A DNA stretch of 64,000 bases. It comes from Acidobacteriota bacterium (lineage in GTDB: Bacteria; Acidobacteriota; UBA6911; RPQK01; CBDAPI01). This document shows positions 7,312-62,800 of the stretch, piece by piece. The notes beneath the pieces were generated by a model. That model was not told where the DNA came from and ran no database searches. It saw nothing but the letters and a program-made list of their open reading frames with translations. Both the position numbers and the translations under genes were made by a program. The stretch is from positions 86,224-150,223 of the forward strand of contig CBDBHK010000020.1 of NCBI GenBank assembly GCA_965205615.1, in the 5' to 3' direction. Every line of letters begins with the position of its first letter. The first letter of the stretch is position 1.

Positions 7312-7315
7312 TTAG

Positions 7316-9053: not shown

Positions 9054-9403
9054 TTAGGCCTCCCAGCGGAGCGCACGCCAACATCTTCAGTATCGTTCGA
9101 AACGAGAACTGCTGCTATGGTCGTGGAACCAGCCATCTACTTAACTATTACAGTATTTTACTGTTATCGAGCACATCGGCCACACTCAGGCGCGCGTCTT
9201 ACCGAATTGGCTTCTCTCCACATCTTTGAACCAGCCCCAGACCTTGCAGTCACGGGCACAGCGTGGCGCCCAGGCCGCCTTCTCTTACCAAGAGGGATAG
9301 GGGGGGGCTAAGCCAGGGGACGCGTTGAAGGGAACAAGCTGCGTTTTTGGTGCCCGTATACGGATGAGGAAAAAGAGATGAGGAGATGAGCTGCACAGAA
9401 GAA

Positions 9404-10225
9404 TCAGCAAACGGGACCAGGGTGTTGAAGATCGGGTTGTTTCGCGCCTTTTCTGACCACGAGAAGGATGTTTTGGTCGGACCATCGAATGTCTTTGAGA
9501 TCTGAAAAGCAGCTTCGAAGATTCTTTTCGAACTCCTCACAGCAGCGCTCGAATTCGCTTCTGGAGTAAAGCGAGAATGTGGAATAGTGGTGATTCCGGG
9601 CTCGCTCGATCAGTCGGTTCAAACCAGCCTCTCTTTCGTACCCAAAGTACTCCGTCTCTTCTAACTCCAGGTTTTTCGCCGTTCTCAAAAGGTCTTCCAG
9701 CTCCCATAATTCAAACAGGCGGGTCTCCATTTGATGAAACAAGGGGAAATACCGGCCCCAGATGCTTCGCCTGTTCTGACTTCTCAGTCGGGTGTAAATA
9801 AACAAGCGGCCTTCATCTTTGAGCACCCTCTTCGTCTCCTCCAAGAATCTTGGCAGGGTGAAATGGTGAATTGCATTAAAGGTAAGTAGACAGTCGAGTG
9901 AGGCATCTTCAAAGGGGAGTTGTTGGTCCAGAGATCGTTTGATCTTGAAGTCTCGGATTCCATGCCTGGTGAGATATCCGTCGGCCTCGTTCAGCATCTG
10001 ACGATTGCTGTCCACACAATAGAGAAAAAGCCGCTCACCTAAATAGTGAAACAGCTCCAGATCATACCTGCCATCTCCACAACCGATGTCTGCAGCTACG
10101 ATCCTGGACGGGAAACCCCTGAGTCTGATCTTGATCGAGAGAATGGGGTCGAGATCGGTAATCCTCAAGCCTCGATACTTTGGCGCCAGCCGCGAAAAGT
10201 GGGACGCAACGTTTTCCAAAGGCAT
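9404..10225 (-). CDS. class I SAM-dependent methyltransferase
   Basis: SAM-binding motif IVAADIGCGDGRYDLELF...LDCLLTFNAIHHF. The segment has lower GC than its neighbours. The start is probably MPLENVAS at 10225. Confidence 0.7.
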   Translation of the reverse strand: MPLENVASHFSRLAPKYRGLRITDLDPILSIKIRLRGFPSRIVAADIGCGDGRYDLELFHYLGERLFLYCVDSNRQMLNEADGYLTRHGIRDFKIKRSLDQQLPFEDASLDCLLTFNAIHHFTLPRFLEETKRVLKDEGRLFIYTRLRSQNRRSIWGRYFPLFHQMETRLFELWELEDLLRTAKNLELEETEYFGYEREAGLNRLIERARNHHYSTFSLYSRSEFERCCEEFEKNLRSCFSDLKDIRWSDQNILLVVRKGAKQPDLQHPGPVC

Positions 10226-36175: not shown

Positions 36176-36316
36176 TCCTGCTCCGGGCCGAGCGGTCGGA
36201 GCCCCTGACGGAAGCCAGGGGAGAAGCGAGCGGCACTCTTTCGTACACCCTCACCGAGTCCCGGTCGGATCGACCACCCCGCCCGGTTCTGCTACACTTC
36301 GCACCATTCAAACGGC

Positions 36317-36393
36317 GCGCCCGTAGCTCAGTTGGATAGAGCGCTGGTCTCCGGAACCAGAGGCCGCAGGTTCGAATCCTGCCGGGCGTACCA
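36317..36393 (+). tRNA. tRNA-Arg (anticodon CCG)
   Basis: GCGCCCG-TA-GCTC-AGTTGGAT-AGAGC-G-CTGGT-CTCCGGA-ACCAG-AGGCC-GCAGG-TTCGAAT-CCTGC-CGGGCGT-A-CCA. Confidence 0.9.
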
Positions 36394-36799
36394 GTATAAT
36401 CCTTTATCCATCAATAACTTAGCAGCATTATGGCTCTCAACAACCCGTCGGAAAACAGCGGTTTTCTGGCAGATTTCTAACAACTCAGAGAGTTTCAAAG
36501 TCGCCGCCCTGTTTTCCAGGCGGAGATCGGAAGGATGGGCGGCATGATTCAGCGGATCATGTGCATGATGATCGGGTAGTCTTTGACCACCAGATCGCGA
36601 ACGATCAGGTTACCGTTCTCAGTCTCTGTGATCAGTTCGTGCTCGAAGCCATTCAACGCTCAACCACCTCTTCCTAATTCGAGATCACAGTACTAAACCT
36701 GATCTTTCTAACGCTTAACCCTAGCTCCTACAGCAGTTAGCTTCGATTTGGAAACCACTGAAGTGATGGCTTGCTGGAAATTTCAGGGCCCGGGCTCGT

Positions 36800-38881
36800 T
36801 CACGGCGCGGGACAGAGGCTCTCATGTCCGGGCAGGCATTGTTCGACCTCTCCCCCCACCATTGTCATCAGCACGTCGATATCGACGATGCGATCCGGAT
36901 CCACGGTGAGCGGGTTTTCGGAAAGGATAATCAGGTCGGCGAACTTTCCGCTCCGAAGGCTGCCGATGTGGTCCTCCATGAACAGTGCGTGCGCGCCGTT
37001 GATTGTCATCATGCGTAGCGCCTCTTCGACCGTGACCGCTTCGGCAGCCAGCCAGTCCGGCGGATCGCAGACAATGCTGTCGTCGTTCGGGTCGATTTGT
37101 CTCTTCGTTACCAATTCGTAAAGGTCGTGTATCGGCCGGCGACCCCGAGCCAAGACGTCACCGTGCCACGCCACGGGCAAACCCGGATTCAAGTCGATCA
37201 GGGACCGCGCCACACGCACCCACCCATGGACCGCGTCACCGAACGGATGCACGTTACCGATCGCATTAAGGCGGCAAGCGTTTGGCCGGCCTCTCACGAT
37301 CGGTAGAGCACCCAGTTCCCCAAAGCGCGCAAGCTGGTCGGGCCGGATGAAATCAGTATGGTCGACCCGATGCCGCAATACGTTCGGACCACCGCCCAGT
37401 GCTATTTCGATGGCGTCCAGCGTGGCCTCGAGAACTGCGTCTCCACGGGTGTGGATCAGGACCTGGTAACCCCGGTCCTGAACGTCGGTAATCAGCTCGG
37501 CCATCTCTTCTGTGCTGACAAGGAGGTCGCCCCGGTATGGCTGCATGGCGCCCGGCGGGACGAAGATCTCAGGCAGCGGCGGAATGATCGTGCCCATCTT
37601 GGCCCATCCGCAAGGAGGCGGAACAGATCTCAGTTCAGACCCGGCGGCGGGATCTGCGAAAATCTTGACGCCCAGGATGCGAGCCATCTGGTCGGGACGC
37701 CGGTCGGGCGGATAGTCCAGATACCACCCGGCTGGCTGCTCGAGGCCGTCGCACTTGGTGTTGTACGTCAGGTAGAGACTCGGTCGGAGGCGAAGATCCG
37801 TAGTCCCAATCGCGGCCAGGAAGTTCTCCAATTTCTCAGGCGACATCCCGGGTTCGCCGATACTCGTGACACCGCCCTCCAGAACCCACTGCTGGAATGT
37901 GTCCAGCGAGTCGAAGTTTGTAAACCCAAGCGGGTGGGAATGTGTGTCGACGAATCCGGGGAGCAACGTCCGTCCCTGCAGATCGATGTGTTGAGCGTTG
38001 GGTCCAGCGAGGCTCTGGACCTGCTCGTTAGAACCCAGCCCAACGATGGTGGCCCCTCTGACGGCCAGCGCCTGGGCCTGAGGCATGCCGGGCTCCATTG
38101 TCAGGATCTGACCGTTTAAAAAGACAACGACGCCAGGTACTGGACCCACGGGCATGGTGACGAACTCACCCGTCTGGGCTTGAATCACTGTAGCGGCAAT
38201 TCTTCCGCTGGTGGTCGTTCCCTTGATGAGGCCTTCGAAGGTACTCAGGTCCAAAGCGACGCCGGGCTCCGGCTGCCAGGAAATCTGGTCGAAGAAAAGC
38301 GCCCGCTGGCCCATCGGCGGGATCGTCACACTCGCCCTGGCCAGCAGATTGCCGTCTTTGTCAATGAGGCGCAGGTCGACGGTGACTTTGGTGGTTGCCG
38401 GGTTCATGATGGCGAATCCCGTATTCGTCGTGGCGTTCTTGACCATAGCAGCCAAGAATCCGGACTGTCTTTGACTGGCCCCTACGCCGGCAGCGCCAAA
38501 GGCGCCGCTGAAATTGATCACCCCGGTCAACGGTTTGTCTGAGATCACGGCGGCCGATCCCTCTGTCACCGGGCCCATCCCGTCAGTCGTCAGGATCCTC
38601 ATGCCGCAGGCCGGAACGGTCACATCCAGCGTTCCATCGGAAAGGACTTGACCGTTGAGGTCCATTCCACTGAGAGGGTTCCCGGCGTTGTCTTTGATCG
38701 TGATCGTGGCCCGGGCCTCCATGCTCTCGTCAGAGTTGAGCAGGATGAACTGACTGATAATGCGTCCCCCCGCTGACCCGCCGTCTCCAAAGTGGGCAAA
38801 GAGAAGCTCGTGCTCAGTCCGGGCCAGAGCAATACCCGAGAACGTCGAGAAAAGGCACAGCGCTAGACTGACATTCCTCAT
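36800..38881 (-). CDS. secreted amidohydrolase-family (metal-dependent hydrolase) protein with an N-terminal beta-rich domain
   Basis: C-terminal amidohydrolase hallmarks (…LLPGFVDTHSHP… HGD…). The start codon and first four codons (ATG AGG AAT GTC) lie inside an IS-terminus remnant. Confidence 0.75.
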   Translation of the reverse strand: MRNVSLALCLFSTFSGIALARTEHELLFAHFGDGGSAGGRIISQFILLNSDESMEARATITIKDNAGNPLSGMDLNGQVLSDGTLDVTVPACGMRILTTDGMGPVTEGSAAVISDKPLTGVINFSGAFGAAGVGASQRQSGFLAAMVKNATTNTGFAIMNPATTKVTVDLRLIDKDGNLLARASVTIPPMGQRALFFDQISWQPEPGVALDLSTFEGLIKGTTTSGRIAATVIQAQTGEFVTMPVGPVPGVVVFLNGQILTMEPGMPQAQALAVRGATIVGLGSNEQVQSLAGPNAQHIDLQGRTLLPGFVDTHSHPLGFTNFDSLDTFQQWVLEGGVTSIGEPGMSPEKLENFLAAIGTTDLRLRPSLYLTYNTKCDGLEQPAGWYLDYPPDRRPDQMARILGVKIFADPAAGSELRSVPPPCGWAKMGTIIPPLPEIFVPPGAMQPYRGDLLVSTEEMAELITDVQDRGYQVLIHTRGDAVLEATLDAIEIALGGGPNVLRHRVDHTDFIRPDQLARFGELGALPIVRGRPNACRLNAIGNVHPFGDAVHGWVRVARSLIDLNPGLPVAWHGDVLARGRRPIHDLYELVTKRQIDPNDDSIVCDPPDWLAAEAVTVEEALRMMTINGAHALFMEDHIGSLRSGKFADLIILSENPLTVDPDRIVDIDVLMTMVGGEVEQCLPGHESLCPAP

Positions 38882-38950
38882 TTCAGCTTCGGATCCGATT
38901 TCCCCTGGCCGCCCGGTGATGAATGATCAAACCCTATCACCCCCCCAACC
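38866..38950 (-). repeat. solo terminus remnant (~85 bp) of the nested IS1380-like element, oriented outward into the amidohydrolase gene
   Basis: About 88% identical to the right end of the 48889..50527 element (…GGAAATCGGATCCGAAGTTGATATGAGGAATGTCGG). It ends exactly at the amidohydrolase ATG. Confidence 0.65.
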
Positions 38951-39188
38951 TTGCATCAACCATGCTCTCGTGCTTCTTGTGACCATCTGGCTGCCCTCGC
39001 AAAGAAAGTTCGTTCAAGGCTGCGGTCTTCAGATCTCGTTCTCTAACACTTTCTAACCAGACCAGCCAAAATGACAAAGATGAGAGAAACTGAGATGAAA
39101 AGCTCGACCCTCAGTAAGTCCTTGTTCTTGAAGATGATAGGTACTGAGATGAAATGAGAGAAAGTGAGCTAAAAACCTCTGCGTCTTA

Positions 39189-39219
39189 TCTCCGGAACCA
39201 GAGGCCGCAGGTTCGAATT
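39189..39219 (+). repeat. tRNA-Arg(CCG) internal fragment (anticodon arm to T-loop) lacking both ends
   Basis: TCTCCGGAACCAGAGGCCGCAGGTTCGAAT is identical to 36342..36371 of the intact tRNA. It then diverges. Confidence 0.7.
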
Positions 39220-39319
39220 GTTCACTTCGCTCACTGCCGTCCTTCAAGAGGGAATCATTGTCCTCAAGATCAGGCGCGGGCTAGATGCACAATAAGTCGC
39301 CGACGTTTTCTGCCGAGCT

Positions 39320-39420
39320 TACCAGTTATTTATCAATAACTTACGCTGATTCCCACCTTGCGGAAACACCTCTAACCCGGCGATTGTCTGACAGATTTCT
39401 GACAACTCAGAGGAATTCGA
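39320..39420 (+). repeat. diverged (~75% identity) copy of the tRNA-Arg(CCG) 3' flank (36394..36490)
   Basis: Shared blocks TTATCAATAACTTA … CAGATTTCT(A/G)ACAACTCAGAG. Confidence 0.55.
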
Positions 39421-39479
39421 AGAGGACTAACCTTCGTCTATGGATCCTCGTGAGGGGTGTACCGTTCTTTCTGTAATTT

Positions 39480-40900
39480 GAGGAAGGTGAGCTAAAAGGA
39501 TCAGAGGTCTGGGGCAGGATTTCTCCAAAAACTCAAGACAAGAGCAAGGAGGATCCGAATGACCCCAGACCCAGAACAGAGGCTACCACGAGAATTGTTG
39601 AAAGAACTGATCGAAGAAGGCAGCGACGCGTTTCGAGGAGTGTTGGAGAAACTGCTCAACACCGCCATGCAGATGGAACGAGAAGAGTTTCTGGGAGCTC
39701 GACGCTGGGAGCGGAGCGAGCAGCGTCGAGACCACGCCAACGGGTACAAGGCCAAGACGCTGTCAACTCGAGTGGGACAGCTTCAAATCCGGATTCCACA
39801 AGTACGTCACCTGGACTTCTATCCCCGATCCCTGGAGCGAGGGTGCCGCTCGGAGAAAGCCCTGAAGCTGGCCATCGCCGAGATGTACGTGATGGGCGTG
39901 TCGACGCGCAAGGTCACTGAGATTACCGAGCAGCTGTGCGGCACCGAGATCTCCGCCAGCCAGGTCTCAAGAATCTCCAAGCTGCTGGACGACGAACTCG
40001 AGCAGTTTCGCAACCGCCCTTTGGGCAGCTATCCAGTTGTGTACCTGGATGCCCACTACGAGAAGGTCCGTCGCCAGGGCAGCATTCAGGATGTGGCCGT
40101 CTTGAAAGCGACCGGAGTCAACTGCTGGGGCAAGCGGGAGGTGATTGGGGTCAGCTGCCGACTCAGCGAGGCGGAGGTCCACTGGCGAGAGTTTCTGCAG
40201 CAGCTTCAAAAGCGTGGTCTGGAGGGTGTGCAGCTGATTGTCAGCGATGACCACTCAGGACTACGAGCTGCCAGAAGAGCTGTCTTTCCTTCAGTGCCCT
40301 GGCAACGCTGTCAGTTTCACCTGAGCCAGAATGCTCAGCGATACGCCCGCCGATCCGACCAACGTGCCGCCATCGCCACTGACATTCGAGACATCTTCAA
40401 TGCCCCGTCTGGAGGCGAAGCTGAGGCGATGCTTCGGGCCAGAGTCGAGCAATACTACGACCGCAACCCGGAGCTGGCCGATTGGATGGAGACCAATCTG
40501 CCGGAAGGCTTTACGGTCTTTCGTTTTGCACGTTCTACCTGGCGGCGCATTCGCACCAACAACGGGCTGGAGAACCTAAACCGTCAGATTCGCCGGCGTA
40601 CCCGGGTCGTCGGTATCTTTCCAAACACCGAGTCCGCACTACGACTCATCACCGCTGTCGTCGAGGAGATTCACGAAGACTGGCTGATCGGGAAACAGTA
40701 CCTCAGCCTGGTCGATTTCAAACCACAGGAGAATCCGATCTCAGATCACTCTCAGTCAAATTACAGAAAAATAGTTGCTTAGCCTCCTCGTGACGCCTCT
40801 GGTGCCGATCCACCCAGGCGTCCTTATCCCGGCAGGAGGGGGCTAACTTCAGTTTTCGGGTCGCAATGAGCTCGTTCTGTTTAGGTTAGCTGAGTGATTG
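39480..40900 (+). mobile_element. IS256-family insertion sequence (boundaries approximate)
   Basis: A single mutator-type transposase ORF with ~80 nt of 5' flank and ~120 nt of 3' flank. Terminal repeats were not confidently resolved. Confidence 0.5.
39559..40782 (+). CDS. IS256-family (Mutator-type) transposase
   Basis: 407 aa. EEFLGARRWERSEQRRDHANGYKAKTLSTRVGQLQIRIPQVR… YLDAHYEKVR … the DDE core is typical of the IS256 family. Confidence 0.9.
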   Translation: MTPDPEQRLPRELLKELIEEGSDAFRGVLEKLLNTAMQMEREEFLGARRWERSEQRRDHANGYKAKTLSTRVGQLQIRIPQVRHLDFYPRSLERGCRSEKALKLAIAEMYVMGVSTRKVTEITEQLCGTEISASQVSRISKLLDDELEQFRNRPLGSYPVVYLDAHYEKVRRQGSIQDVAVLKATGVNCWGKREVIGVSCRLSEAEVHWREFLQQLQKRGLEGVQLIVSDDHSGLRAARRAVFPSVPWQRCQFHLSQNAQRYARRSDQRAAIATDIRDIFNAPSGGEAEAMLRARVEQYYDRNPELADWMETNLPEGFTVFRFARSTWRRIRTNNGLENLNRQIRRRTRVVGIFPNTESALRLITAVVEEIHEDWLIGKQYLSLVDFKPQENPISDHSQSNYRKIVA

Positions 40901-48497: not shown

Positions 48498-48888
48498 GAG
48501 GGAGTCGTCTCCCTCCAGCCTTAGCCCGCATAGATCACCGATTTGGAAATGAAGGTGATTTTGGCAGGCCGGAACGGTTTTCTGAGAGTTTCGCTATCGA
48601 TCCGGTCCAGGTCGAGTGATGCGGTGGTGTGGATGGTCGTGAATGGAGCGTTTTTCGGGTTCGGAAGAGCGTGACGGAATGCATTCAGGCAGAGCTCGGC
48701 CTGAGCGATGGAACGATTTCGTTTTTGGGGGCGTTTGATCGGGACAGACCTCAGCAGCGCAGAGGAATGGCCTGGAGGTTTCGAACGACGGCAGCGAAGA
48801 CCTCGCTGTAGGGATAGGCTTCCGACATGGAGATCCAGACGTGGCGGACCGTGAGGCGGACCTGGGCGCCGATCTTCAGGAGCTTCAA

Positions 48889-50527
48889 CCCACATTCACC
48901 ATATAGGACCCCAAGATTGCTTGTCTGAATCGATGTAAACTACTATAATTAAAGGAGATATAGCACATAAAGGGGGCAAGGAATGGCTCACCCCAAGGGT
49001 GAAGGTGTGAAGGTCGGTTTTGATGGCAGTATCAGGCTTGAGTTTCATGGTGCTAAGGTCACATCGGATGCCGGACTTCTCGCCTATCGTGATCTGGATG
49101 AGGCGTTGGGTTTATTCGATAGTGTGCCCTTCGTGTTTCACGATTCGCGGACCGGGCGCAACATCCAGCACCACCTCACGGCCTTGATGCGTCAATCGGT
49201 ATACAGCCGTCTCGCTGGCTATGAAGATGTCAACGATGCCCATCGCTTATCGGTTGATCCGACGATGCGAAGGATCACCGGAAAGAAGCTCGACGATAAG
49301 AATGCCGCCAGCGCCAACACGATGGGTCGATTTGAGACCCAGATGCTGTCCGTCGAGAACAACCTGCAAGCCCTTTCGGAAGTCAATGGTCGATGGGTGG
49401 AAAGAGCGCTGCAGAAAACAACTCATCGACGCATCATTCTGGATATGGACAGTTCAGCTAGTCCGGTCCACGGCGAGCAAGAAGCCTCTGCCTACAACGG
49501 GCATTTCGGATGCACTTGCTACCATCCGCTGTTTTGCTTCAACCAGTTCGGAGATTGCGAAGGTTTCATGCTTCGGCCCGGCAACGTGCACAGTGCGGAC
49601 CGTTGGAAGGAGATGCTGGAACCAATCGTGGCTCGGTACGAGAAGAAGAAAGTCCGCAAATACTTTCGGGGTGATGCAGCCTTCGCCAAGCCAGAGATTT
49701 ATGAATACTTGGAGGAGAAGGGCTTTTTGTATGCCATCCGGCTTCCCGCCAACCAGGTGCTTCAAGAAAAGATCGAACACCTGCTGACCCGACCGGTGGG
49801 GCGCCCACCCAGAAAACCCGTTGTTTGGTTGGCCGATTTCAAATATCAAGCCGCCAGTTGGGACCGGCCTCGTCGGGTGATTGCCAAGGTCGAGTGGCAT
49901 CGCGGCGAACTCTTTCCGAGAGTCGGTTTCATCGTGACCAACAGGAGCGCACGAGCCCAAGGGGTGGTTCACTTTTACAACGGTCGCGGCACGGCTGAGC
50001 AGTGGATCAAGGAAGGCAAGTATGCCTTGAACTGGACGCGGTTGTCCTGCCAGCACTTTGTCCCGAATCAGGTGAGGTTGGCTCTGTTTGTTTTGGCCTA
50101 CAACCTGGGCAATTTTCTGCGCCGTCTGGTCCTTCCCAGAAGAATCAAACACTGGTCCCTTCGAACCCTATTGGCCAAGTTGATCAAGATCGGAGCGAAG
50201 GTGGTTCACCATAGTCGAATCGTGACGTTTCAGATGGCGGAAGTCGCGGTCAGCAAGGAGGTATGGGCCGAGATGTTATCTCGGATTGACCGCTTGAGAT
50301 GGATCAGAGCCTAGCACCAAGTGTTTCTGATCGAATGGGTGGAGAGGTGTCTCCACTGATCAGATTTCGGCAAAGGCGCCTGGATAACTCTGGGCTTAGA
50401 GGCCCTTTTCAGGCGGAAAGATGCCGAGGGAATCGTTGACGCGAGGGTGGAGGGCTGATAAGTTTTGATCATTCATCACCGGGAGGTCAGAGGAAATCGG
50501 ATCCGAAGTTGATATGAGGAATGTCGG
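48889..50527 (+). mobile_element. second, distinct IS1380-family element (1639 bp) nested inside copy 2, with a 5-bp TTCAA target duplication
   Basis: Terminal inverted repeats CCCACATTCACCATAT and CCGACATTCCTCATAT. TTCAA at 48884..48888 and 50528..50532 occurs only once in the uninterrupted copy 1. Confidence 0.8.
48983..50314 (+). CDS. DDE transposase (IS1380-family, distinct from the 7376..8827 type)
   Basis: 443 aa. IRLEFHGAKVTSDAGLLAYRDLDEALG…YEDVNDAHRLSVDPTMRRI is homologous to, but diverged from, the other IS1380-like transposase. Confidence 0.85.
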   Translation: MAHPKGEGVKVGFDGSIRLEFHGAKVTSDAGLLAYRDLDEALGLFDSVPFVFHDSRTGRNIQHHLTALMRQSVYSRLAGYEDVNDAHRLSVDPTMRRITGKKLDDKNAASANTMGRFETQMLSVENNLQALSEVNGRWVERALQKTTHRRIILDMDSSASPVHGEQEASAYNGHFGCTCYHPLFCFNQFGDCEGFMLRPGNVHSADRWKEMLEPIVARYEKKKVRKYFRGDAAFAKPEIYEYLEEKGFLYAIRLPANQVLQEKIEHLLTRPVGRPPRKPVVWLADFKYQAASWDRPRRVIAKVEWHRGELFPRVGFIVTNRSARAQGVVHFYNGRGTAEQWIKEGKYALNWTRLSCQHFVPNQVRLALFVLAYNLGNFLRRLVLPRRIKHWSLRTLLAKLIKIGAKVVHHSRIVTFQMAEVAVSKEVWAEMLSRIDRLRWIRA

Positions 50528-51849
50528 TTCAAGCGAATCGTCTGACACTGAGCGCGAGCCAGGGGGGTCTGCTTCAGTCCGAGACGACGCAAGGCGTGCA
50601 TGAGCATGTAGGCGGCGGAGGACAGATACAGCCGGAGTTGATTGGCGCGCATCGTTGCCGCGCTGGTCCGGTCGGCGAACAGACCCAACTGCTGTTCTTT
50701 TATGCGGTTCTCCATGTCGCCCCGCGCACAGTAGAAGTCTTCGTAGAGCGCGCGGGCCCCCAGGCGTTCCGGCGACAGGGAGGTGACGACGAATCGGGGA
50801 TTGGCGCCTTTGTCCAGGAACTCGGCCTTGCCGACGACGCGTCGCTCCGAGGTCCAACTGTGGCGAGTCCGGTAGCGGAAATCCTTGAACACCCGCGCCG
50901 GTCGCCCGGTGGCGTTGAACTCGGCTTCGGCCTGAGTCATCGCTTCGGCGCTCTCTGACTTGAGCCGATCATTGTTGGCCAACCCCATCACGTAATCCAC
51001 GTGATGGTCTTCACACCAGCGGAGCAAGTCATCCCGGCAAAAGCCCGAGTCGGCCCGGATGACGATCGAGACCTCCGGCCAGCTCTGCCGAATCCGGCCG
51101 ACGATCCGTTCCAGTTCCTCCACCGATCCCGCGGCCCCATCGATATTGGAACACCGCAACCGGGCGCACAGCAGATGCTCCCCCGAGAAGATGTACAGCG
51201 GGAGATAACAGTAGTGGCGGTAGTAACCGTGAAAGAACCGGCCTTCCTGCTGGCCATGGATCGGGTCGTCGGTCGCATCCAGATCCAGCACCATCTCCTC
51301 GGGCGCCGATTCGTGGGACTCCACGAAGGCATCCACCATCCAGCCGTCGATCCGGTCCGGGTCCATCGCGATCTTCTTGTACCGCTCCTGCTCATCGACC
51401 TCGGCGCCGGTCAACTCCAACCGGTTCAGCGTACACCTGCCCGCCAGCGCCTTCCCCCGATCTGAGGCCTGCCGCCGCCTCTCCCCCAACGGATCGGCCT
51501 TATTCACCGCCACCGCCAGCATCGGATCGGTGCGCAACTGATCATGATCGTTCAGATCCTCGTACCCCAGACAGAGTCCGTAGATGCGCTGCCCCAACAA
51601 CTCCTCGACCGTGTGTTCGATCAACCGCGGATCCCGGTGATCCCTGAAACACTCAGCCAGTCCGGCGATCAGACCCGTCCCCCTCTCGACCTCTCGCAAC
51701 AGCAGCACCCCTGCATCGGAGGTGATCTTCCCGCCGTCGAACCGCGCCTTCACTTTGCGTTGAAATAGTCCGTGAAATTCGAACCTGGCTTGTTTACACT
51801 CTGTTCTCATAAGGGCCGCCTCCGTTTGCGTGTGAAAACGTTCATTCAA
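50528..51849 (-). CDS. DDE transposase of IS copy 2, C-terminally truncated by the nested insertion
   Basis: The ORF-track frame 50476..51849 matches the 7376..8827 protein up to …QCQTIRL. It then reads into the nested IS terminus. Confidence 0.75.
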
Positions 51850-51855
51850 AACGCT

Positions 51856-53214
51856 TTATACCAAACAGGGCGGCCTTTTCAGGTCCCATCGGTGAGAAAT
51901 GGCGGCTAGAGAGGATACCAGTTCCTGGGCTGCCTTTGAGAACCCGGGGATTAGCCGATACCCAGGGTAGATCGGCCGCTCCGTGTCTTCTGCGTTTCGC
52001 AACGCAGTCAAGACGAGGAACTTTACCAGTGAAGCCTGGAACTCCTCTTCACTTGAGAATGCAACTTCCAGGTGCGGGGACCGCTCATACAGTCCGGCGA
52101 TCTGCTTGACCGCAAGGTCCGCGTAACCTAGCAGCGCCTCTGGATGAAACAGATCGCTATGTCGAGAGAGCGGCCGGTATTCCGGTTGTCCCCCAGGGCG
52201 CTGGATCGGCATGGGATCGTTGATCAACGCAGCGGCGAACGCAAAGGCGTCCTCATCAACAGACTTTGCACCGGCGATCAAGACGAGCCGCCACGCGAAG
52301 TACGCTGGAAGCCCGGCGGAAAAACGAAGTCCCGAGAGCCCGTCGCCAACGGAGACCAACGCGCCAGCGATTCGTAGCACGGCACGTGCGCCAGGGGGCC
52401 AATCCTCTGACGCTAAACCACTCGCCAGAAGCTCGGTGCCCGTCATCAGGGGCGCGAAAGCGCTCTCGAATCGGAGCGCTTCTCCTGCGATCTCGTCGCT
52501 CTGGATCTGACCGCCTTCGCGCAGAGAGCTAAGCGAGCTGACGCGACCTGGCACGTCCGCCTGTATCTCCCGGACAGCTAGACGAATCAGACGATTCAGC
52601 GTTCGTGTGTCCCGCGACGACGCCAGCCCCATGCCAGCCTCGAACCATGAGGCTTCGGGCTCCACGGCCCCGAAAGGAGAGGTATCCTTCAGCACAGTCA
52701 ACGCGCGATTGGTCGTCCGGGGCGGCGCACCGTGGCTACCGAACAACGATAGAGCGTCCTCCAAAGTGTCCACTCGGCATTCGATGTCCTCAATCCGTGC
52801 ATCTGACATCGGCGGCTTCTCGCGTCCTGAGGGATTCTCCAGGAAGTCGCTGACCGGATTGTCCGCCCTGCTCGGATCTCGGTCTACGTCTGATAGCAAG
52901 TCAGCAAGCTGCCGGGTGAGTTCCGCGCATCCCTCCGACGTACGCCAGTCGTAGACATGAGTAGCATATGACCGGAGATCGAAGGGAATGTCCTTTCGGT
53001 CTTGCGCAATGAGTATCGTCCGGTTCCTAAGAACGTGGCGTACGCCAAGCTCGTAGAACACATTCGGATTCCGATCGGTGAGGTCGGCCAGAACCACCCA
53101 GGCTGCGTCGAGATCCTGAACGATCCCCTTGATGAGATTGCCGCGTGTTGCGGTCGATCGGCGGCACTCGTAGCCCGCAGCTTCGACAGCAGGCCGTATG
53201 ACCTCCTCGAACAC
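51856..53214 (-). CDS. hypothetical protein with an N-terminal nucleoside 2-deoxyribosyltransferase-like / TIR-like domain; the native C-terminus is replaced by IS-encoded residues
   Basis: N-terminus VVLADLTDRNPNVFYELGVRHVLRNRTILIAQD (the family pattern h-ADLT..NPNV-YELG-AH). The last ~15 aa (AISHRWDLKRPPCLV) are encoded by the terminus of IS copy 2. The IS630 left end lies 17 bp upstream of the start. Confidence 0.55.
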   Translation of the reverse strand: MFEEVIRPAVEAAGYECRRSTATRGNLIKGIVQDLDAAWVVLADLTDRNPNVFYELGVRHVLRNRTILIAQDRKDIPFDLRSYATHVYDWRTSEGCAELTRQLADLLSDVDRDPSRADNPVSDFLENPSGREKPPMSDARIEDIECRVDTLEDALSLFGSHGAPPRTTNRALTVLKDTSPFGAVEPEASWFEAGMGLASSRDTRTLNRLIRLAVREIQADVPGRVSSLSSLREGGQIQSDEIAGEALRFESAFAPLMTGTELLASGLASEDWPPGARAVLRIAGALVSVGDGLSGLRFSAGLPAYFAWRLVLIAGAKSVDEDAFAFAAALINDPMPIQRPGGQPEYRPLSRHSDLFHPEALLGYADLAVKQIAGLYERSPHLEVAFSSEEEFQASLVKFLVLTALRNAEDTERPIYPGYRLIPGFSKAAQELVSSLAAISHRWDLKRPPCLV

Positions 53215-53231: not shown

Positions 53232-54398
53232 TAGTGTACTGTCCGGAAAGTTCTTGTAGTTAATAGTCAGGGTACTTTTCTATCCTTGGGCATGGCAAGA
53301 CCACATATTCGACTCGATCTACCCCAACAACACAAAGCAATTCTACAGTCCTGGCTGCGGGCCTCCAACACCAAAAGAATCCTCGCCGAGCGAGCCCAGA
53401 TGATCTTACTGTGCGGGGACGGACTCACAGCAATTGAGGTCTCCCAAAGGCTGTCCAAGCGCCTGGGCAGCATACAGAAGTGGCGAAAGCGCTACCTTGA
53501 GGTGGGGCTATCAGGGTTGGAGGATCAGCCCCGTTCGGGTCGACCACGGCGACTATCGCCAGCGAAGGTACGAAAAATTCTCAAGGCCACCGTGCAGACC
53601 ATCCCCAGGGAATCGACTCATTGGAGCCTGCGCCTCATGGCAGAGTATGCCCAAGTCAGCAAACATCAGGTGACTGAAATCTGGAAAGCCGCAGATCTTA
53701 AGCCCCACCGGATTCGCTCTTTCAAGATCAGCAACGATCCTGATTTCGCCGAGAAGGTGATCGACGTGGTGGGCCTGTACATGGACCCGCCCGACAACGC
53801 TTTGGTTTTGTCTGTAGACGAAAAAACTCAGATTCAGGCTCTGGACCGAACCCAGCCCATGCTTCAGCTCAAACCCGGGCAGGTCCAACGCAGAACCCAC
53901 GATTACAAACGCCACGGGACGGCCAGTCTGTTTGCCGCCTTCGACGTGGCCACCGGTGAAGTAATGGGCCGAATCACGAAACGGCATCGGGCCATAGAGT
54001 TTTTAGCCTTCTTACGTCAGATCGAGCAAGTCGTCCATCCAGATCTGGACGTTCACCTCATTCTCGATAACTCGAGCACTCACAAGACCCAGAAAATCCG
54101 AAACTGGTTCCTACGACGCCCACGTTTTCATCTCCACTTTACTCCTACCAGTGCTTCCTGGTTAAACGCTGTCGAAACCTGGTTTTCACAGCTTGAGCGG
54201 CGTTCCCTTTACCGCAACTCTTTCACTAGTGTTCAAGAGTTGAGGAACGAAATACGAAGATATATTCGAGTGCATAACCAACACCTGGCCAAGCCCTTTA
54301 AGTGGCGGGCCAACGCTACTTCGATCTTAGACAAGGTCGAAAGAGCTCAAAGATCCATCGATCAATGTTAACAACAGGAATTTCTCGGACAGCACACT
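53232..54398 (+). mobile_element. IS630-family insertion sequence (~1.17 kb)
   Basis: Terminal inverted repeats TAGTGTACTGTCCGGAAAGTTCTTGTAGTTAATA and TGTTAACAACAGGAATTTCTCGGACAGCACACTA. A single transposase gene lies inside. Confidence 0.8.
53286..54371 (+). CDS. IS630-family transposase
   Basis: 361 aa. A helix-turn-helix N-terminus and a DDE core (…LDNSSTHKTQKIRNWF… TPTSASWLNAVETWFSQLERR) typical of IS630/Tc1. Confidence 0.9.
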   Translation: MGMARPHIRLDLPQQHKAILQSWLRASNTKRILAERAQMILLCGDGLTAIEVSQRLSKRLGSIQKWRKRYLEVGLSGLEDQPRSGRPRRLSPAKVRKILKATVQTIPRESTHWSLRLMAEYAQVSKHQVTEIWKAADLKPHRIRSFKISNDPDFAEKVIDVVGLYMDPPDNALVLSVDEKTQIQALDRTQPMLQLKPGQVQRRTHDYKRHGTASLFAAFDVATGEVMGRITKRHRAIEFLAFLRQIEQVVHPDLDVHLILDNSSTHKTQKIRNWFLRRPRFHLHFTPTSASWLNAVETWFSQLERRSLYRNSFTSVQELRNEIRRYIRVHNQHLAKPFKWRANATSILDKVERAQRSIDQC

Positions 54399-54530
54399 AG
54401 TACACGATTGCGAAGTCGAGAAGGGCATTATGACGAAGCAAGTCCGTCCACCAGATCGGTCGGATTGTTCGAGGTCTTTAGCCACCGTTAACGCCAGTCG
54501 TCTGGTGGCCGAGCGCCCCAGCCGCCGAAA

Positions 54531-54821
54531 TCACCCCTCCTCGTTAATCTCCGGGACGGGTTGGATTATCAGTTTCTCCTTCTTCAGATGCAGTTCCCTG
54601 AACCCTGCGACAACGGAAGCCAAGAGCTCAAGCTCATCCCTGCTAACCTGGCTCTTGTCACGGCGGTAGCGCCTTGCCGCAGCATAGACATCCTTCGCTT
54701 TGAGGAACTTGCCGGCCTTAGATTTCCAAACGAGGATGTCTCGTTTTCCGTTGGGCGCTAGGCCGCGATCGAATCCGAAAACAGAGTTCGGGTCATCGAA
54801 GACCTGGGGAGGTTTGGGCAC
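54531..54821 (-). CDS. small hypothetical protein (96 aa). Its start and first ~20 codons lie in a 60-bp segment duplicated at 54937..55000
   Basis: ORF only. No family recognised. Confidence 0.3.
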   Translation of the reverse strand: MPKPPQVFDDPNSVFGFDRGLAPNGKRDILVWKSKAGKFLKAKDVYAAARRYRRDKSQVSRDELELLASVVAGFRELHLKKEKLIIQPVPEINEEG

Positions 54822-54825
54822 CTGG

Positions 54826-54936
54826 CCAAGCCCTTTAAGTGGCGGGCCAACGCTACTTCGATCTTAGACAAGGTCGAAAGAGCTCAAAGATCCATCGATC
54901 AATGTTAACAACAGGAATTTCTCGGACAGCACACTA
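54826..54936 (+). repeat. duplicated 3' terminal 111 bp of IS630 (copy of 54288..54398), bracketed by a 60-bp direct repeat
   Basis: Identical to the IS630 right end through …CACACTAG. The flanking segment GGCCGCGATCGAATCC…GGTTTGGGCA occurs at 54767..54826 and again at 54937..55000. Confidence 0.8.
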
Positions 54937-54968
54937 GGCCGCGATCGAATCCGAAAACAGAGTTCGGG

Positions 54969-55827
54969 TCATCGAAGACCTGGGGAGGTTTGGGCATCCG
55001 CCTGTCTCATCAGGTAGATCGCCTCAATGATTTGATCTTCCGATACAGAGTCCCCTCGGAGCAATCTAGCCATAATGCTTTGGATCCTGACAAGATCTGT
55101 GACTCCAAAGACCCGGGTGTAAGCGGCCAGATCGGGTTCTGTTGGGCGGCCCAGGTGGCGACGTTGCAGATGCGTGAGCATCTCGTGAAGGAAATGAGCA
55201 AGCGCATTACAGCCTCCCTCCCCGGTGTCTTTGGGAAAGAAGGTCATCCCAGTTTCCTGATGCGTGAAAAAAACCTGAGTGTCCGCCCGGATCACTGAGA
55301 ACACACAGCATGTCAGCCCTGGGTCGATTCTCCGTCAGCTTTTGCCTCAACCTCTTGAGAGAGACATCGGACCTAAATGCAAAACCCGCACTCAGGATGC
55401 CAGACGATCCTTGGCTACCACTTTGTTCGAGGAAGTTCGATTTCTCGGCAAGACGGCGCACGCTTTCGGCCTTCAAGCCGATATCTCTTAGATCTTGAGC
55501 CCTCAGCGTTGACTTGACCTCGATTGTGGCCTGCACTGACTCAACGAGGATGATCTTCCCTCTCTGCCCCCGATCTCCTGCCAGAGGCGAGTTTGCACGA
55601 TCGCACACGATTACATCCTGCTGCTTGCTCCATTCGTCGTGCGCGTTTACAACCAAACCCGTACACACCCCATATCGACCGTGCAACTGCTTCTCCAGGA
55701 AACGGATCAGGATATCTTCTCGAATGTCGCCTTTAGTGCCTGGATGAGGTACGGGCAGATCTCGGTCGAACTCGGCAAGCATGGCCTTTCGATCAGCTTC
55801 CAGAATCTCTTCAATACGACGGGACAT
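54969..55827 (-). pseudogene. NERD-like / PD-(D/E)xK restriction-endonuclease-fold protein, apparently frameshifted
   Basis: ORF 55207..55827 has GTKGDIREDILIRFL… DVIVCD… IILVESVQATIEVKS, giving D…E-V-K spacing. An overlapping out-of-frame ORF 54969..55304 continues downstream. Confidence 0.45.
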
Positions 55828-56797: not shown

Positions 56798-59700
56798 TTA
56801 CCTTGGGGGCTCCAGGACAGGGAAGGCCGTCAGGGTTCCCACGTCTCCTGGAAACGGATTGGAAGGGTCGTCGTTCTGGAGCAGGGTCACGGCGATGATC
56901 GGGAAGGGGCTCGAAATAGCCAGCAGACCTCGCATCTCGTCGATTCCCTCTACGTCCGGAAACAACTGGGTTACGAATTGAGCGGTGTGCTGGCCGGCCA
57001 GCAGTTCCAGCTCCCGGGTCGCTAACTCGGCTCCCGACGCGTCCTCGAGTCTCAGCTCCATGAATCCGCCCCCTCCTCCTCCGGCCGGACCCGGCACCGG
57101 GTTGGCAAGAGCGACACCCGTCTCGGCGTTGCCGGTGGTGTCGACGAACAGGAAGAAGCTGGTCCCTGGCCGCGACGCCGGCACTCCAGATTCGGTCTCC
57201 AGGAGCCCCGAGGGAAGATCAACCCTGGAAAAAACGGCTGAGCCGCCCAGGCCCTCCTCGGAGGTCACCCGCGCGTAGCCGGCCTGTATGGCCGCTTGGC
57301 CGCTGGTTTCCAGGACCCTGGACTGCCCCGATCCCAGCTGAAAGTTAAACGTCGAGTCGGTTCCCAGGCCGTCTATCCTGAGGACCATCGGATCCCCGTT
57401 GGGGTCGAAGACGTCCAACTGGACCGGTACCTGGCCGGCGGCCACGTTGGCCAGGTTGATCGCCGTCTGCAGTCCAATCGGCCCCGCCTGCCCGTTTCCG
57501 ATCTGGGCAAAAAAGAACTGGATCGGTATCGCGCCCTGTGGTTCCGGCCCCAAAAACTCGGGAGCTCTCCCCTCCAGCACGGGGAAGGCGGCCAGGGTCG
57601 GGACTTCCTGGGGGAATTCGACTCCCGGGGCATCATTCTGTCGCAAGGTGACCAGCGCGATCGGATCCAAGCTCCCCACAGTCAGGACGCCCCGCATCTC
57701 CGGGGCCTGCTCGACATCCGGGAAGAGCTGGGAGACAAAGGCGGCTTGATGCCGGCCCGCCCCCAGTTCCAGAACCGTCTCCCCCAGCAGGGTGAATTCC
57801 GGGTCGAAGAGCTTGAAAAACATCTCGCCCGGGAGGCCTGTCGGGGAGCTGCCTGCGCGAAAGGTCTGCTCCGAAGGAAAGACCTGACGATCGACGACGT
57901 TGACGATGGCCAGCCCCGTCTCCAGGTCGCCGAGCGAGTCCACGAACAGAGTCGCTTCCTGCAGCCACTCCGACGCCGGCACCCCAGCCTGGTAGAGGAT
58001 CGTCCCCGTGGGCACGTCCCGGCGTGTGAAGATCCCCGTCACGCCGATGCTCGCTCCACCCCGGATGCGAGCGTAGCCGGCCTCGATTGCGCCGGTGCCC
58101 GAGGTCGTCAGATTCCATGTCTCTCCAGGTCCCAGGCTTGCTGAAACGGACGAGACCTTGTTTTCTCCAGCCGGATCCTGACCATTCAGGTCCAGCTCCC
58201 ACCGTCCTCCTGTGGGATCGAAGAAATCGATCGTGAAAGCGGCGTGCCGTCTCTCGAGAGTGCTGGCGACATCGATCTCGGTGCTCAAAATGATATTGCC
58301 GGTCTGACCGTTCCCTACCTGGGTGAGGTACTGGACGTGCTCGAGGGACTGCAGCTCAAAGGCACCGATATCCACGGCGGGGCCGAAGACCCGGTCTTGC
58401 TCGTTCAGGTCGAGGTCACCCAGGCCGCCCGGGGGATCATTGTTGCCGGCATTGATGCCGGGGGAGCCGGCCAGCAATCGATAGTCGCCGTTTTCAGGAT
58501 CGGCGAACAAGGGATCGACGCAGATCAGGTTATTGTTCCCCGGCAATCTCTCGGGGTGCGTCAGGTCCGTTCCATTCCCGTAAACAATGGTATTGTCCAT
58601 CCCGGCGAACAGGAACCGGATGCCGTTCTCTGCGTTGTTGGCGATGGTCAGGTTCGTGAGTTGGATATCAGGGCCGTCACCATTGATGCCGTTCTGGAGG
58701 CCATCCGCAATCAGTGAATCCGTAAGGGCGAACGACGCCTCGAAGGCGCTGAGGTAGACCTGTGCCGAATTGCTGCTCTCGGTTCCCGAGTTGTCCAGCC
58801 AGGTGTTCCTCCTGGCCGTGAGCTGGCTCCCGCTGCCGGCTGAAAAAAAGCTCCGGCACCCCTGGGTCTCCCCGCCCCCTGAAACCGATTCCCCCGCATA
58901 AAGTTGTCGTGGAACTGGACCTGAGCGTTCTCGAATGCATCGATCTCGGCGGCCCCGCCGCTCACATTGCCCTCAGAGATCACAGTGTTGTTGAGAAAGA
59001 CGTTGTCCGTGATCTCGAGCGTTGTTTCGCCTGTGCCTCCTGCCGAAAGCCCGCCTCCGATGGCGCATTCCGTCGCGGCACTCCACCACATTGTCCTCAA
59101 ACCGGTTGTTCAGGATCTGAATCGATGAGTTCCCGGTCGCGAAGAGATTCAGTCCACCACCCACCGAGTTGTGCAGAACGGAACGGGCCTCGTTTCCGAT
59201 GAACCTGCAGGAACTGACCTCAACACTTGCATCCTGGCCGGGCGAGATTTCTACGGGCCCGCCGGCTGAACTGCTGCCCTCGGCAACGTTGCCCTCAAAA
59301 ATACAGCCGCGCATCACGAGACTGGATGCGTCGTTGACGTCGGCGGTGATGGCTGACGCAAAAGGCGCTTCGGAAGATCCGTCGTCGAGCCCACCCCTGT
59401 TATCTGTGAAATTGCAGCCAATAATCTCAACGGTCGCGGTGCCGGAAGCGATCAGAAACATTGCCGCCCCCGCCTGCTCGCTGAACCCTTCGGTAAGCGT
59501 CAGATTCTCCAGCCGCAGCTCTCCGCTTCCGATGGCGCTGACGGACAGTATCTCGCTGCTGGTCCCACCGCTAAGGTACGTCAGCGAGGCACCCGGCGTC
59601 ATTTCGCTGAAAGCACCGTTCCATCCCCCCGAAATGGTCAGGGAGCGGTTGTCGTTCACGGCCACACTGGTTTCCCCGTCGTCGAAGACTCCCTCCTGGA

Positions 59701-59854
59701 TGCGGATCTCGTTGTCACCGCCCACTACAACCGCAGCGGTAACAGCGGACTGGAGGGTGGTGTGTGTTCCGGCCGGTCCGACCGTGAAGACATCGCCGAA
59801 CACGAGCGTGGCGGACAGCAGTAAAGTCATTGCGAAGCAGCAGAAACGGATCAT
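56798..59854 (-). pseudogene. secreted right-handed parallel beta-helix protein with two C-terminal ~250-aa repeat modules, paralog A, with at least two frameshifts
   Basis: The signal peptide and beta-helix N-terminus (ORF 58973..59854) fall out of frame into ORF 58711..59100, then resume as ORF 56798..58600 (…DPLFADPENGDYRLLAGSPGINAG…DIGAFE, followed by QVGNGQ… modules). It is collinear with the 59851..62903 paralog. Confidence 0.7.
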
Positions 59855-62800
59855 GGCGAGGTCTCCTCGAGTACTGGAAAGGCAGTCAAAGTCCCGATGT
59901 CCTGGGGAAAGGCAGTCGCCGGATCGTCGTTCTGAAGCAGGGTCACGGCCACGATCGGCACCAGACTCGAGACTTCCAGCAGGCCTCTCATCTCGTCGAT
60001 CCCTTCGACCTCGGGGAAGAGCTGGCTGACGAACTGGGCGGTGTGTTGACCCGTTCCCAGTTCCAGCTCCCGCTCGGCCAACAGCTGACCGGCCATATCC
60101 AGCAGTTTCATGTCGATCAAAGCCATCTCACCGGCGGGCACGGGACCGGGATTGGCCAGGGCCAGACCGGTGTCGGCGTCGCCCGTGGTGACCACAAAGA
60201 GGGAAAAAGAGTTGAGCGGACGTGCCGAGGGCACTCCGGATTCGGTTTCCAGAATCCCGCTTGGGACATCTATCCTCCGGAAGACCGCCGAACCCCCGAC
60301 TCCCTCCTGCGTGGAGACGCGCGCATAACCGGCTTTGATACCCCCAAGCCCATCCGTCCGCACCACCCTCGACTCGCCTCGGTTCAAATTAAAGTTGAAA
60401 GAAGAGCCCGAGCCGAGACCTTCCAGGGTTAAGACCAGTGGATCTCCCGAGCTTTCAAAAAAATCGATCTGTACGTCACCGTCCTGGAAAATCGTATTGG
60501 CAACGCTGAGAGAGGTCTGAAGACCAATCCCGCCCAGCTGTCCGTTGCCGATCTGGGCAAAGTAGTAGATGTCGGGGTCGATACCGGAAGGCGTCTGGCC
60601 GGCTGGTACAGGCGACCGACCGGAAAGGACCGGGAAGGCAGCAAGAGTGGGGACTTCATCGGGATAGTCCAGCCCCGGCCTGTCGTTCTGGCGCAAGGTC
60701 ACCAGCGTAACGCAGTCAGTGCCGTCCATGCACTCTGCGGTCAGAACGCCCTGCATCTCCAGAGCCTCTTGCGACTCGGGGAAAAGCTGGGAGACAAAGA
60801 GCGCCTCGTGCTCTCCCGGCTGCAGCAGCTTCTGTGTCTGATCGATCTGATTGAACTCGGCGTCATAGAGCGTCAGGGTCAGGTCCGCATCCCTGATGAA
60901 TTCCGAGGGATCAATGGGGTTGACCATGGCCACACCGGTTTCGAGATCACCCAGAGTATCCACGAATAGTGTCGCCGACCTGACCCCTGCACCACTAGAA
61001 GCAGGGATTCCCGCCTGATAGAGGACCGTGCCGCTGGGGCCGTGTCGCCGCGTAAAGATGCCGGTCACGCCAGTGTTTTCGCCGCTTCGAATACGAACAT
61101 AGCCTGCTTCTACGTCCCCAGTCCCGAAGTCTCCAGGCTCCAGCTCTCGCCCGGATCCAGCAGGACAGAGACCGAGGACAGTCTGTTTTCCCCGGCCGGC
61201 AGTTCTCCCTTCACGCCTACCTCCCAGGGAGCCCCCGAGGAGTCAAGAAACTCGAGGGTGAAGCCTTCGGCTCCCTCACTTGCCGTGCTCGCAGCATCGA
61301 TCTCGGTGCTGAGGACAATGGTGCCGGCCTGACCATTCCCGACCTGGGCAAGGTACTGGATGGTCTGATCGGAGGGGGCGACTTCATAAGCCCCGATATC
61401 CACCCGGCCGCCCCAGTCCCGATCCTCCCCGTCCAGGTCAAACTCTCCCAGACCTCCGGGTGGGTCGCTGTCGGCGACGTCAACCGCAGGGGAGCCGGGC
61501 ATGAGATGGTAGTCGCCGTTTTCGGCGTCCACAAAAAATGGGTCGGTTTCGACCAGGTTGCTTCCAGTCTCTGTTCCCTCATCCGGAGTGGAATTGCTCC
61601 CATTGTTGAAAACGATTGAGTTGTAAAAACTCATGGTTCCGACTCTGAACGTTGAAATCGCAGACCCTGCGTTATCGGCAAGCGTGAAGTTTGAGAGACG
61701 AAGAATTGACTCCTCGTGATCGGTTATGCCACTAATCCCTCCTGCGTTCGATCCGGCAACCACCGAGTCTCTCATGATCAGTGCCGAGGAGTTGGCGGAG
61801 ATAAGGGAAAGACTATCTGACCTCTGGTTAACGAGATCCAGGGTTTGGAACCAGAAGTTCCGCTCCGCTGCAACTCGAGCTTCGTCTCTGAGCCAGATCG
61901 CAGCACCCGGGCCGCTTGCTGAGCCCTCTCCCATGGCCTGGTTGTCGACGATGGTGTTGTAGGAAAAGCTCCCTTCCGCCTGACCCTCTACCTCAAGGTA
62001 GACACCCGCACCCGTGCTGGAATTGGTGGAAGTCACCGTACGGTTGCTCCGAAAATCGTTGCCTTCAACTAAAAAACTCGACGTGTCCCGAGCGGCCATT
62101 TCCATTCCACCACCGGCAGTCGTAGAGCCGCCCGAAGTCACCGTGTTGTTCCTGCAGGTGTTCCCGGTCAGAGTCAAACCACTGTTGTCTTCCAGGAAGA
62201 CTCCGATCGCCCCTCCCCCGGCGCTCCTATCCTGGCTCTCGACCAGGTTGTCGTGGATGCTGTTGTCACGTACGGTGACCGTCGAGGTTCCCCGTGTGCG
62301 CAGGTTGACCGTGGCGCTTGCATTGTTGACGGCGTCAATACGATTACCGTATATCTCGCAGGAGTCGACGATGAGGTGGGTGTCCCCCCGCAGGAGGGCG
62401 TGGATGGCCGAGCCTCTCATCTGGGAGTTCTGATCATTTCCGACCAGGTTCTCGACGATCTGAAGATCCAGCAGCTCAACCTGGCTCTGCTGACAATCGA
62501 TTCGGATGCCCGCTCCCTCTTCCATGTCAAACCCGTCCCGCACCGTGAGGTTTTGGATAGAAACCACGGAACCGGTTCCAATTCCCGAGATATCGATCAC
62601 GCGGCTGGCCATGTCCCCTGACAAGGCTGTAAGAGAAGCATCCTCAGTCTGAACATCGAAGGTGTCGTTCCAGCCGCCGCTGATCACCACATCACCGGTC
62701 AGATCCTGTGCCGGGACAACCACAGTCCCGCTGAACATGCCTTCCTGCACCCGGATCTCATTGTCCCCTCCCGTGGCGACCGCCGCGTCGACCGCGGACT

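Follow-up and report, generated by a model that had tools for sequence, protein, structure and literature searches.

The right end of a decayed IS1380-family element as the probable start codon and leader of an amidohydrolase gene in Acidobacteriota

Elements of the IS1380 family of insertion sequences (IS), such as ISEcp1, carry 14-bp terminal repeats, produce 5-bp target duplications, mobilise downstream genes by way of imperfect right ends and supply −35/−10 signals (PMC12589106). The miniature inverted-repeat transposable element (MITE) MITEAba12 contributes in another manner: its terminal repeat, read outward, encodes the beginning of neighbouring genes, from the start codon to the fourth residue (MQQS), as judged from sequence (PMC6382973). 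ISAba1 upstream of blaampC is an example of an outward-facing IS promoter (PMC6382973). Here we describe a related case in a 64,000-nucleotide stretch of DNA from an Acidobacteriota bacterium (contig CBDBHK010000020.1, positions 86,224 to 150,223 of the forward strand). We call this whole stretch the window and number all positions within it unless another sequence is named. The gene of a 693-amino-acid (aa) amidohydrolase (36800-38881, reverse strand), identified from its open reading frame (ORF) and a domain search, starts inside the eroded right end of an IS1380-family element of about 104 nt (38868-38970, reverse strand). We consider it likely that this remnant is an inherited fossil that still gives the gene its translation start, and not the trace of a recent activation. 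The homology of the remnant, the direction in which the sequence passed, its age relative to the gene family and its reading frame can each be read from the alignments described below.

The locus combines features of the ISEcp1 and MITEAba12 systems, and differs from both in its ancient junction, fixed in a gene family, and in the decay of the element. With ISEcp1, which is found upstream of genes such as blaCTX-M, it shares the transposase family, a size of about 1.6 kb, short repeats and a 5-bp duplication. The gene likewise lies downstream of the right end, in the orientation of the transposase, and a live sister of the element appears to make up a transposition unit with the gene beside it. 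Unlike ISEcp1, the element beside the amidohydrolase gene has been reduced to about 104 nt and cannot move, and no intact IS lies upstream of this gene. Its contribution is a start codon and leader, that is, a translational fusion rather than a mapped promoter, and the fusion is ancient and inherited by a family, not a recent capture of a resistance gene. As in the MITEAba12 fusions of Acinetobacter, a start and four codons come from a terminal repeat read outward, and both cases are known from sequence. However, the donor there is a 113-bp MITE that made sporadic recent insertions, whereas here it is the decayed end of an autonomous IS1380 element, fixed across a diversified family and across species. 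The resemblance to ISAba1-type outward or hybrid promoters lies in an IS end directly upstream of a gene in the activating orientation, but here a consensus scan predicts no promoter and the effect is seen on the coding start.

Our reference for the remnant is an intact IS1380-family element of 1639 bp in the same window (48889-50527, forward strand), recognised by its transposase model, its repeats and its 5-bp duplication. The 443-aa transposase (gene 48983-50314) matches the NCBIfam model NF033539, 'IS1380 family transposase', with 383.7 bits (cut-off 180, E=8.4e-115), and PF13701 with E=2.8e-130. Its ends (left inverted repeat, IRL, CCCACATTCACCATAT; right inverted repeat, IRR, reverse-complemented, CCGACATTCCTCATAT) are 16-bp repeats with 13/16 positions identical, and the target TTCAA is duplicated at 48884-48888 and 50528-50532. 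The size, the short terminal repeats and the 5-bp duplication all agree with the description of the family (PMC12589106). The element is nested in a second, different IS1380-family element (48517-51908, reverse strand, found from repeats and domain matches), which it splits into 48517-48888 and 50528-51908. An uninterrupted copy of this host element at 7313-9061 (forward strand) represents the empty target site. The IS terminus is thus fixed independently of the remnant, by the TTCAA duplication and by the uninterrupted host copy. Every further context of the same IS that was sampled in Acidobacteriota assemblies ends with the identical tip, and the live copies are 99.5-100% identical among themselves. 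Read outward, the right tip is ...GAT ATG AGG AAT GTC GG, with the ATG at 50514-50516 (50514, not 50513 as first reported) and the transposase stop 213 nt from the tip.

The remnant corresponds to positions of about 1537-1639 of this element. When both are anchored at the tip, so that 50527 pairs with 38868, they are identical at 59/67 (88%), 87/104 (84%) and 49/55 positions. BLASTN gives a match of 109 nt at 84% identity (E=2.6e-28) that reaches 38978, and a repeat search pairs arms of 104 nt at 38867-38970 and 50425-50528 with 85% identity. The local alignment score of the remnant is 73, against 11.6 ± 1.4 and a maximum of 17 for 300 dinucleotide shuffles, and the similarity breaks off at the IS terminus. 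The original prediction, made from the letters of the window, had proposed a solo right-end remnant at the start of the gene, similar to the intact element at about 88% (the 59/67 above) and above chance. This holds, except that the proposed length of about 85 bp falls short of the roughly 104 nt found (38868-38970, or to 38978 by BLAST). Searches with BLASTN and TBLASTN found no further part of the IS beside the gene; the remnant is a fossil end and not a complete element. Neither a left IS end nor a flanking duplication could be identified at this locus.

The gene of 693 aa takes both its leader and its first 14 nt from the remnant. The start ATG (38881-38879, reverse strand) and the next 11 nt fall inside the former terminal inverted repeat, so that 38868-38881 reads ATG AGG AAT GTC AG, coding for M, R, N, V and two bases of codon 5. 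The match ends with ...GTCAG in the gene where the live copy has GTCGG, and the GTCAG tip is also present on separate right-end fragments in L021 and L023 (comparison sequences bear L numbers, and related proteins P numbers). Since the match stops after GTCAG, host-derived sequence begins in codon 5. The alignments therefore lend good support to an IS origin of both the start codon and the leader, as had been proposed for the start codon.

Eight intact or truncated relatives of the gene, of the amidohydrolase, NosD/beta-helix and BACON types and from several Acidobacteriota assemblies, were available for comparison. All eight have the M-R-N-V/I start and the same IS-gene junction, and a ninth (L031) has a disrupted copy of it. 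Among the closest relatives of the protein, which also begin with MRN[VI]SL, are P0001 (930 aa, with two N-terminal modules), P0004 (697 aa), P0006 and P0007. The same start is found in P0016, which has a BACON C-terminus, and in P0017, with a NosD/beta-helix C-terminus; the member in L020 is a NosD-type protein of 1276 aa. What varies is how much of the right part of the IS has been kept: 55 nt in L002-L008, 76 nt plus a separate 60-nt internal IS piece in L027/L028, 78 nt in the truncated copy of L022, about 100 nt in the window, L001, L009 and L020, 260 nt in L030 (the longest before an amidohydrolase relative) and 327 nt, with the last 38 transposase codons, in L029. Remnants of 55 to 327 nt across the family are thus a record of the steps of erosion.

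These longer remnants also establish the direction of transfer, from IS to gene, because they reach into the transposase gene; in L030 the remnant runs through the equivalent of the transposase end and its stop. Could the right end of the IS instead have originated as 5′ DNA of an MRNV gene, picked up by read-through, so that the gene has a native start? IS1380 elements can make use of imperfect right ends further downstream (PMC12589106), and the 213 nt between transposase stop and tip would have room for a captured segment. However, the similarity in L029 and L030 spans the whole of this tail and continues into transposase coding sequence, which cannot come from the gene. The tip also pairs with the left repeat at 13/16 positions, and independent right-end fragments of 54-495 nt adjoin unrelated sequences. 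We regard this reversed direction as extremely improbable.

A side observation on such fragments is that those in L021, L022, L024 and L029 begin at IS coordinates 1144, 1293, 1312 and 1311, respectively, and run to the tip. The nearly shared start at about 1293-1312 may reflect one recurrent point of truncation or descent from a single fragment.

The age of the junction can be judged against that of the family. Among family members the upstream sequence is 84-95% identical (ungapped), which is similar to the identity at third codon positions (75-85% over the first 240 codons); the junction is therefore about as old as the family. A family member in L020, which belongs to a different GTDB species, also lies beside a tRNA-Arg(CCG), and both its spacer and the boundary of its remnant are similar to those in the window. 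The L030 amidohydrolase relative is 91.6% identical to the window gene over about 2 kb of nucleotide sequence. These comparisons indicate that the insertion predates the divergence of the MRNV family and that the remnant is an inherited fossil.

A recent event, specific to this genome, was what the original prediction had favoured: an IS would have landed beside the amidohydrolase, switched the gene on or carried it along by one-ended transposition, and then been deleted. The junction of the amidohydrolase does occur in at least three genomic contexts (the tRNA-Arg locus, a PhdYeFM/AraC locus in L002-L008 and an OPT locus in L030), and such behaviour is in keeping with the family, as described for ISEcp1 (PMC12589106). 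Ordinary duplication or rearrangement would account equally well for these several contexts. Live copies of the IS agree with one another at 99.5-100%, the remnant with the live IS at only 84-88%, and the junction is common to paralogues with other C-terminal domains and to another species, with a similar boundary. No left IS end, alternative right end or 5-bp duplication was identified, with the proviso that 36394-36800 was not searched for a right end. A recent capture or activation in this genome now appears unlikely, as the fusion is old and common to the family, and extends to another species. Relatives that already begin with MRNV behind the same upstream sequence, which had been named in advance as evidence against an IS origin, do exist. 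The IS origin is nevertheless unharmed by them, because such relatives carry longer pieces of the IS (260 nt in L030, 327 nt in L029).

A further argument for such an event comes from the live sister IS. In L010, L012-L015 and L017-L019 an identical IS, the same as that at 48889-50527 of the window (2907-4545 in L010), is followed by the same DNA for up to 2042 nt, and the left flanks differ in at least seven ways. The first gene of the unit encodes an AP_endonuc_2 protein with a twin-arginine motif (a Tat-type start), and the ATG of the IS is in frame six codons upstream of the called start, giving MRNVGL-MVSNRRKFL. A 5-bp duplication, TTCAT, surrounds the IS and its flank in L019. No target duplication for the unit of IS and AP_endonuc_2 gene was found in L010 or L015, and the right boundary of the unit is therefore only partly established. 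The IS and this gene look like an ISEcp1-type transposition unit in Acidobacteriota. The suggestion that the element behaves like ISEcp1 thus proved apt for the live sister, with the same IS-AP_endonuc_2 junction behind at least seven different left flanks.

Another junction is found in L026 (OZ252114.1, 552-1849, an Acidobacteriota metagenome-assembled genome), where the DNA before an HflC-like SPFH gene is a 75-nt piece of right end that matches the IS at 97% identity. The protein has MRNV at the alignment position where its homologues have N-termini of the MSSKT or MKRQH type. The tip ATG therefore yields in-frame starts at three independent junctions, those of the MRNV family, the AP_endonuc_2 gene and the HflC-like gene; other IS-tip junctions yield only short ORFs. 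As a separate observation, the L026 ORF departs from its HflC homologues beyond about residue 205, and looks like a fusion or a frameshift with a second SPFH domain.

Does the donated ATG work as the start of the amidohydrolase gene? It belongs to a terminal repeat read outward, begins 14 nt inside the tip and is in frame for 693 aa. No other ATG, GTG or TTG comes before codon 54, which already lies inside a conserved module, and a hydrophobic segment resembling a signal peptide follows the ATG directly. Among eight family members the 14 IS-derived nucleotides have changed only by AGG>AGA (twice), ATG>TTG, GTC>ATC and AGT>ACT, all of which are synonymous, conservative or start-preserving. The ATG at 38881 is thus the sole plausible start, and we infer that it is the one in use.

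Several observations weigh against this interpretation. No Shine-Dalgarno-like motif is found at −20 to −4 of the ATG, although several genes of the window have strong ones in a survey of long ORFs that takes the longest start per ORF and is only indicative. A scan for consensus sigma-70-type promoters gave no site in 36200-39600. The hexamers that can be picked out by eye, TTGATG-17-TAGGGT, are weak and below the threshold of the scan, and the 55-nt version lacks them although an intact 930-aa ORF still lies downstream of it; any transcriptional signal within the remnant is a putative one. The conservation of the first codons is weak evidence, since family members are not independent samples. 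Finally, none of the relatives examined has kept a 5′ end from before the insertion.

A sceptical reading of these points would be that the IS-derived ATG is unused, that the gene is a 5′-damaged pseudogene or has an internal start, and that MRNV is an artefact of ORF calling. The missing Shine-Dalgarno-like motif speaks for it, as do the L030 gene, for which one gene caller took a downstream Met, and the visibly disrupted 5′ end in L031. We consider it very unlikely. Relatives cover 100% of the 693-aa frame, which is uninterrupted, an in-frame MRN[VI]SL followed by a hydrophobic segment is present in all compared members with an intact 5′ end, and the next possible start is codon 54, within the conserved module. 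The 918-aa product called in L030 starts further along, at another Met, yet the MRNV ATG precedes it in the same reading frame.

P0002 (L030) and P0019 (L031) had at first been taken for possible family members with a 5′ end free of IS sequence. Both were rejected: an IS-derived end is present in each, the caller having taken a later Met in the former and the 5′ end being disrupted in the latter. In L031 (359-2520) the IS-derived ATG has become separated from the signal-peptide region by an insertion and duplications, and a fresh full-length variant of the IS (89% identical) is found about 240 nt upstream of the old remnant.

The leader itself has one well-conserved part. Across eight family members the block CCAGAGGAAATCG (38895-38909, −28 to −15 from the ATG) is the most conserved section of the remnant, with 4 differences in 112 positions compared with 12 in the 14 nt that adjoin the ATG. 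It contains GAGG, which is too distant from the ATG for a canonical Shine-Dalgarno sequence. The leader RNA does not fold more stably than shuffled sequences (z=+0.79 for the window, 0.03 for the IS end and 0.62 for L029); the short L005 version, with z=−2.6, is the sole one below its shuffles. An Rfam scan gave no match besides tRNA.

The product of the gene, which begins with MRNVSLALCLFSTFSGIALA, has what looks by eye like a signal peptide: one Arg, a hydrophobic stretch and then Ala-Leu-Ala. It is probably secreted. A module of about 235 aa (residues about 22-255) is followed by a C-terminal Amidohydro_3/Amidohydro_1 domain (E=5.5e-42). Exact look-ups of the protein and of P0007 gave no match. 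One or two N-terminal copies of the same module (ELLFAHFGDG...EFVTMPVG) are present in MRNV-family proteins, joined to unrelated C-terminal domains. It also forms tandem C-terminal repeats, about 60% identical, in the giant proteins P0008-P0015 of 900-1200 aa. The idea that the signal peptide came from an inter-repeat linker of this module, with the IS truncating a longer gene, was rejected as unsupported, because the in-register L005 alignment agrees at 22/72 positions ahead of the ELLF motif, no more than chance would give; the only local match is 16 nt long and has a frame-breaking gap.

The history that we propose for the inherited fossil would run as follows. A sister of the live 1639-bp IS1380-family element would have inserted at the extreme 5′ end of the gene ancestral to the family and in the same orientation. 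The outward ATG of its right terminal repeat (ATG AGG AAT GTC) would have fallen in frame with the signal-peptide region, and would from then on have served as the start codon, with the right end of the IS as leader. The family may then have diversified into proteins with one or two N-terminal modules and amidohydrolase, NosD/beta-helix or BACON C-termini, while the IS body decayed to a different extent in each copy, leaving about 104 nt in the window. A bolder extension would treat the IS1380-lineage right end as a portable cassette of translation start and leader, with at least three in-frame fusions, of which one was domesticated and seeded a secreted multi-domain family in uncultured Acidobacteriota. 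The IS might even have helped to move the block of start, signal peptide and module onto new C-terminal domains. We offer this extension tentatively and think it rather unlikely as a whole.

What makes the case of interest is that the end of a transposable element seems to have been retained for good, giving a whole family of genes their start codon and leader well after the rest of the element had decayed. It is a clean natural example of IS domestication at translation initiation, from a poorly studied phylum. It also calls for caution in annotation: N-termini of the shared 'MRNV...' kind and conserved upstream sequence can be IS-derived. Our understanding of IS1380 elements is unchanged by it, as donation of a start by a terminal repeat, and the mobilisation and expression of genes by this family, have already been described.

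The gene and its remnant are also set within a tRNA locus. An intact tRNA-Arg(CCG) (36317-36393, forward strand) lies 407 nt beyond the 3′ end of the gene, and on the other side the 3′ half of the same tRNA, from the anticodon loop onward, is repeated at 39189-39325 (forward strand). The repeat starts with 39189-39218, identical to 36348-36377 (30/30), is interrupted by an insert of about 90 nt (39219-39308) and closes with a degenerate acceptor end (39309-39325); beyond it, the sequence to about 39420 is similar to 36394-36500. The two bracket a 2.8-kb segment that contains only the amidohydrolase gene and the IS remnant. As in tRNA-integrated islets, then, gene and remnant lie between a tRNA and a direct repeat of its 3′ part. 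Unlike such islets, the segment has no integrase, the amidohydrolase being the only long ORF between the repeats, and the repeat is interrupted and degenerate. The ORF at 39559-40782 was considered as the integrase of the tRNA repeat and rejected, being an IS256-family transposase. We treat this arrangement as context, separate from the donation of the start codon.

Between the IS remnant and the tRNA fragment, sequence comparison delimits a low-GC spacer (38971-39188). Its GC content is part of a wider pattern, with non-coding DNA at 38900-39500 at 47-50% GC and coding sequence at about 60%. The original prediction had about 600 bp of low-GC debris and a tRNA-Arg fragment after the remnant. 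The fragment (39189-39218) is real, but it lies only 218 nt from the remnant, and the 600 bp correspond to the whole low-GC non-coding stretch as far as the IS256-family transposase gene. In L002-L008 the tRNA half and spacer also stand before the 930-aa paralogue, in a stretch 94% identical to 39042-39218 of the window, and no intact tRNA is found nearby.

The IS256-family element next to this segment measures 1332 bp (39453-40784, forward strand) and encodes the transposase of 407 aa. In the near-identical contig L001 this site is unoccupied, and the same element is found at 8448-9779, a position equivalent to 39095-39102 of the window and about 350 nt away; each site is empty in the other contig. 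These reciprocal empty sites mean that transposition is recent and ongoing in this population.

Elsewhere in the window, 54282-54996 and 56810-61360 contain direct repeats of 63-207 nt. A periodicity of about 3 kb (56810/59866, 57447/60497 and 58260/61285, 74-80% identity) suggests tandemly duplicated genes.

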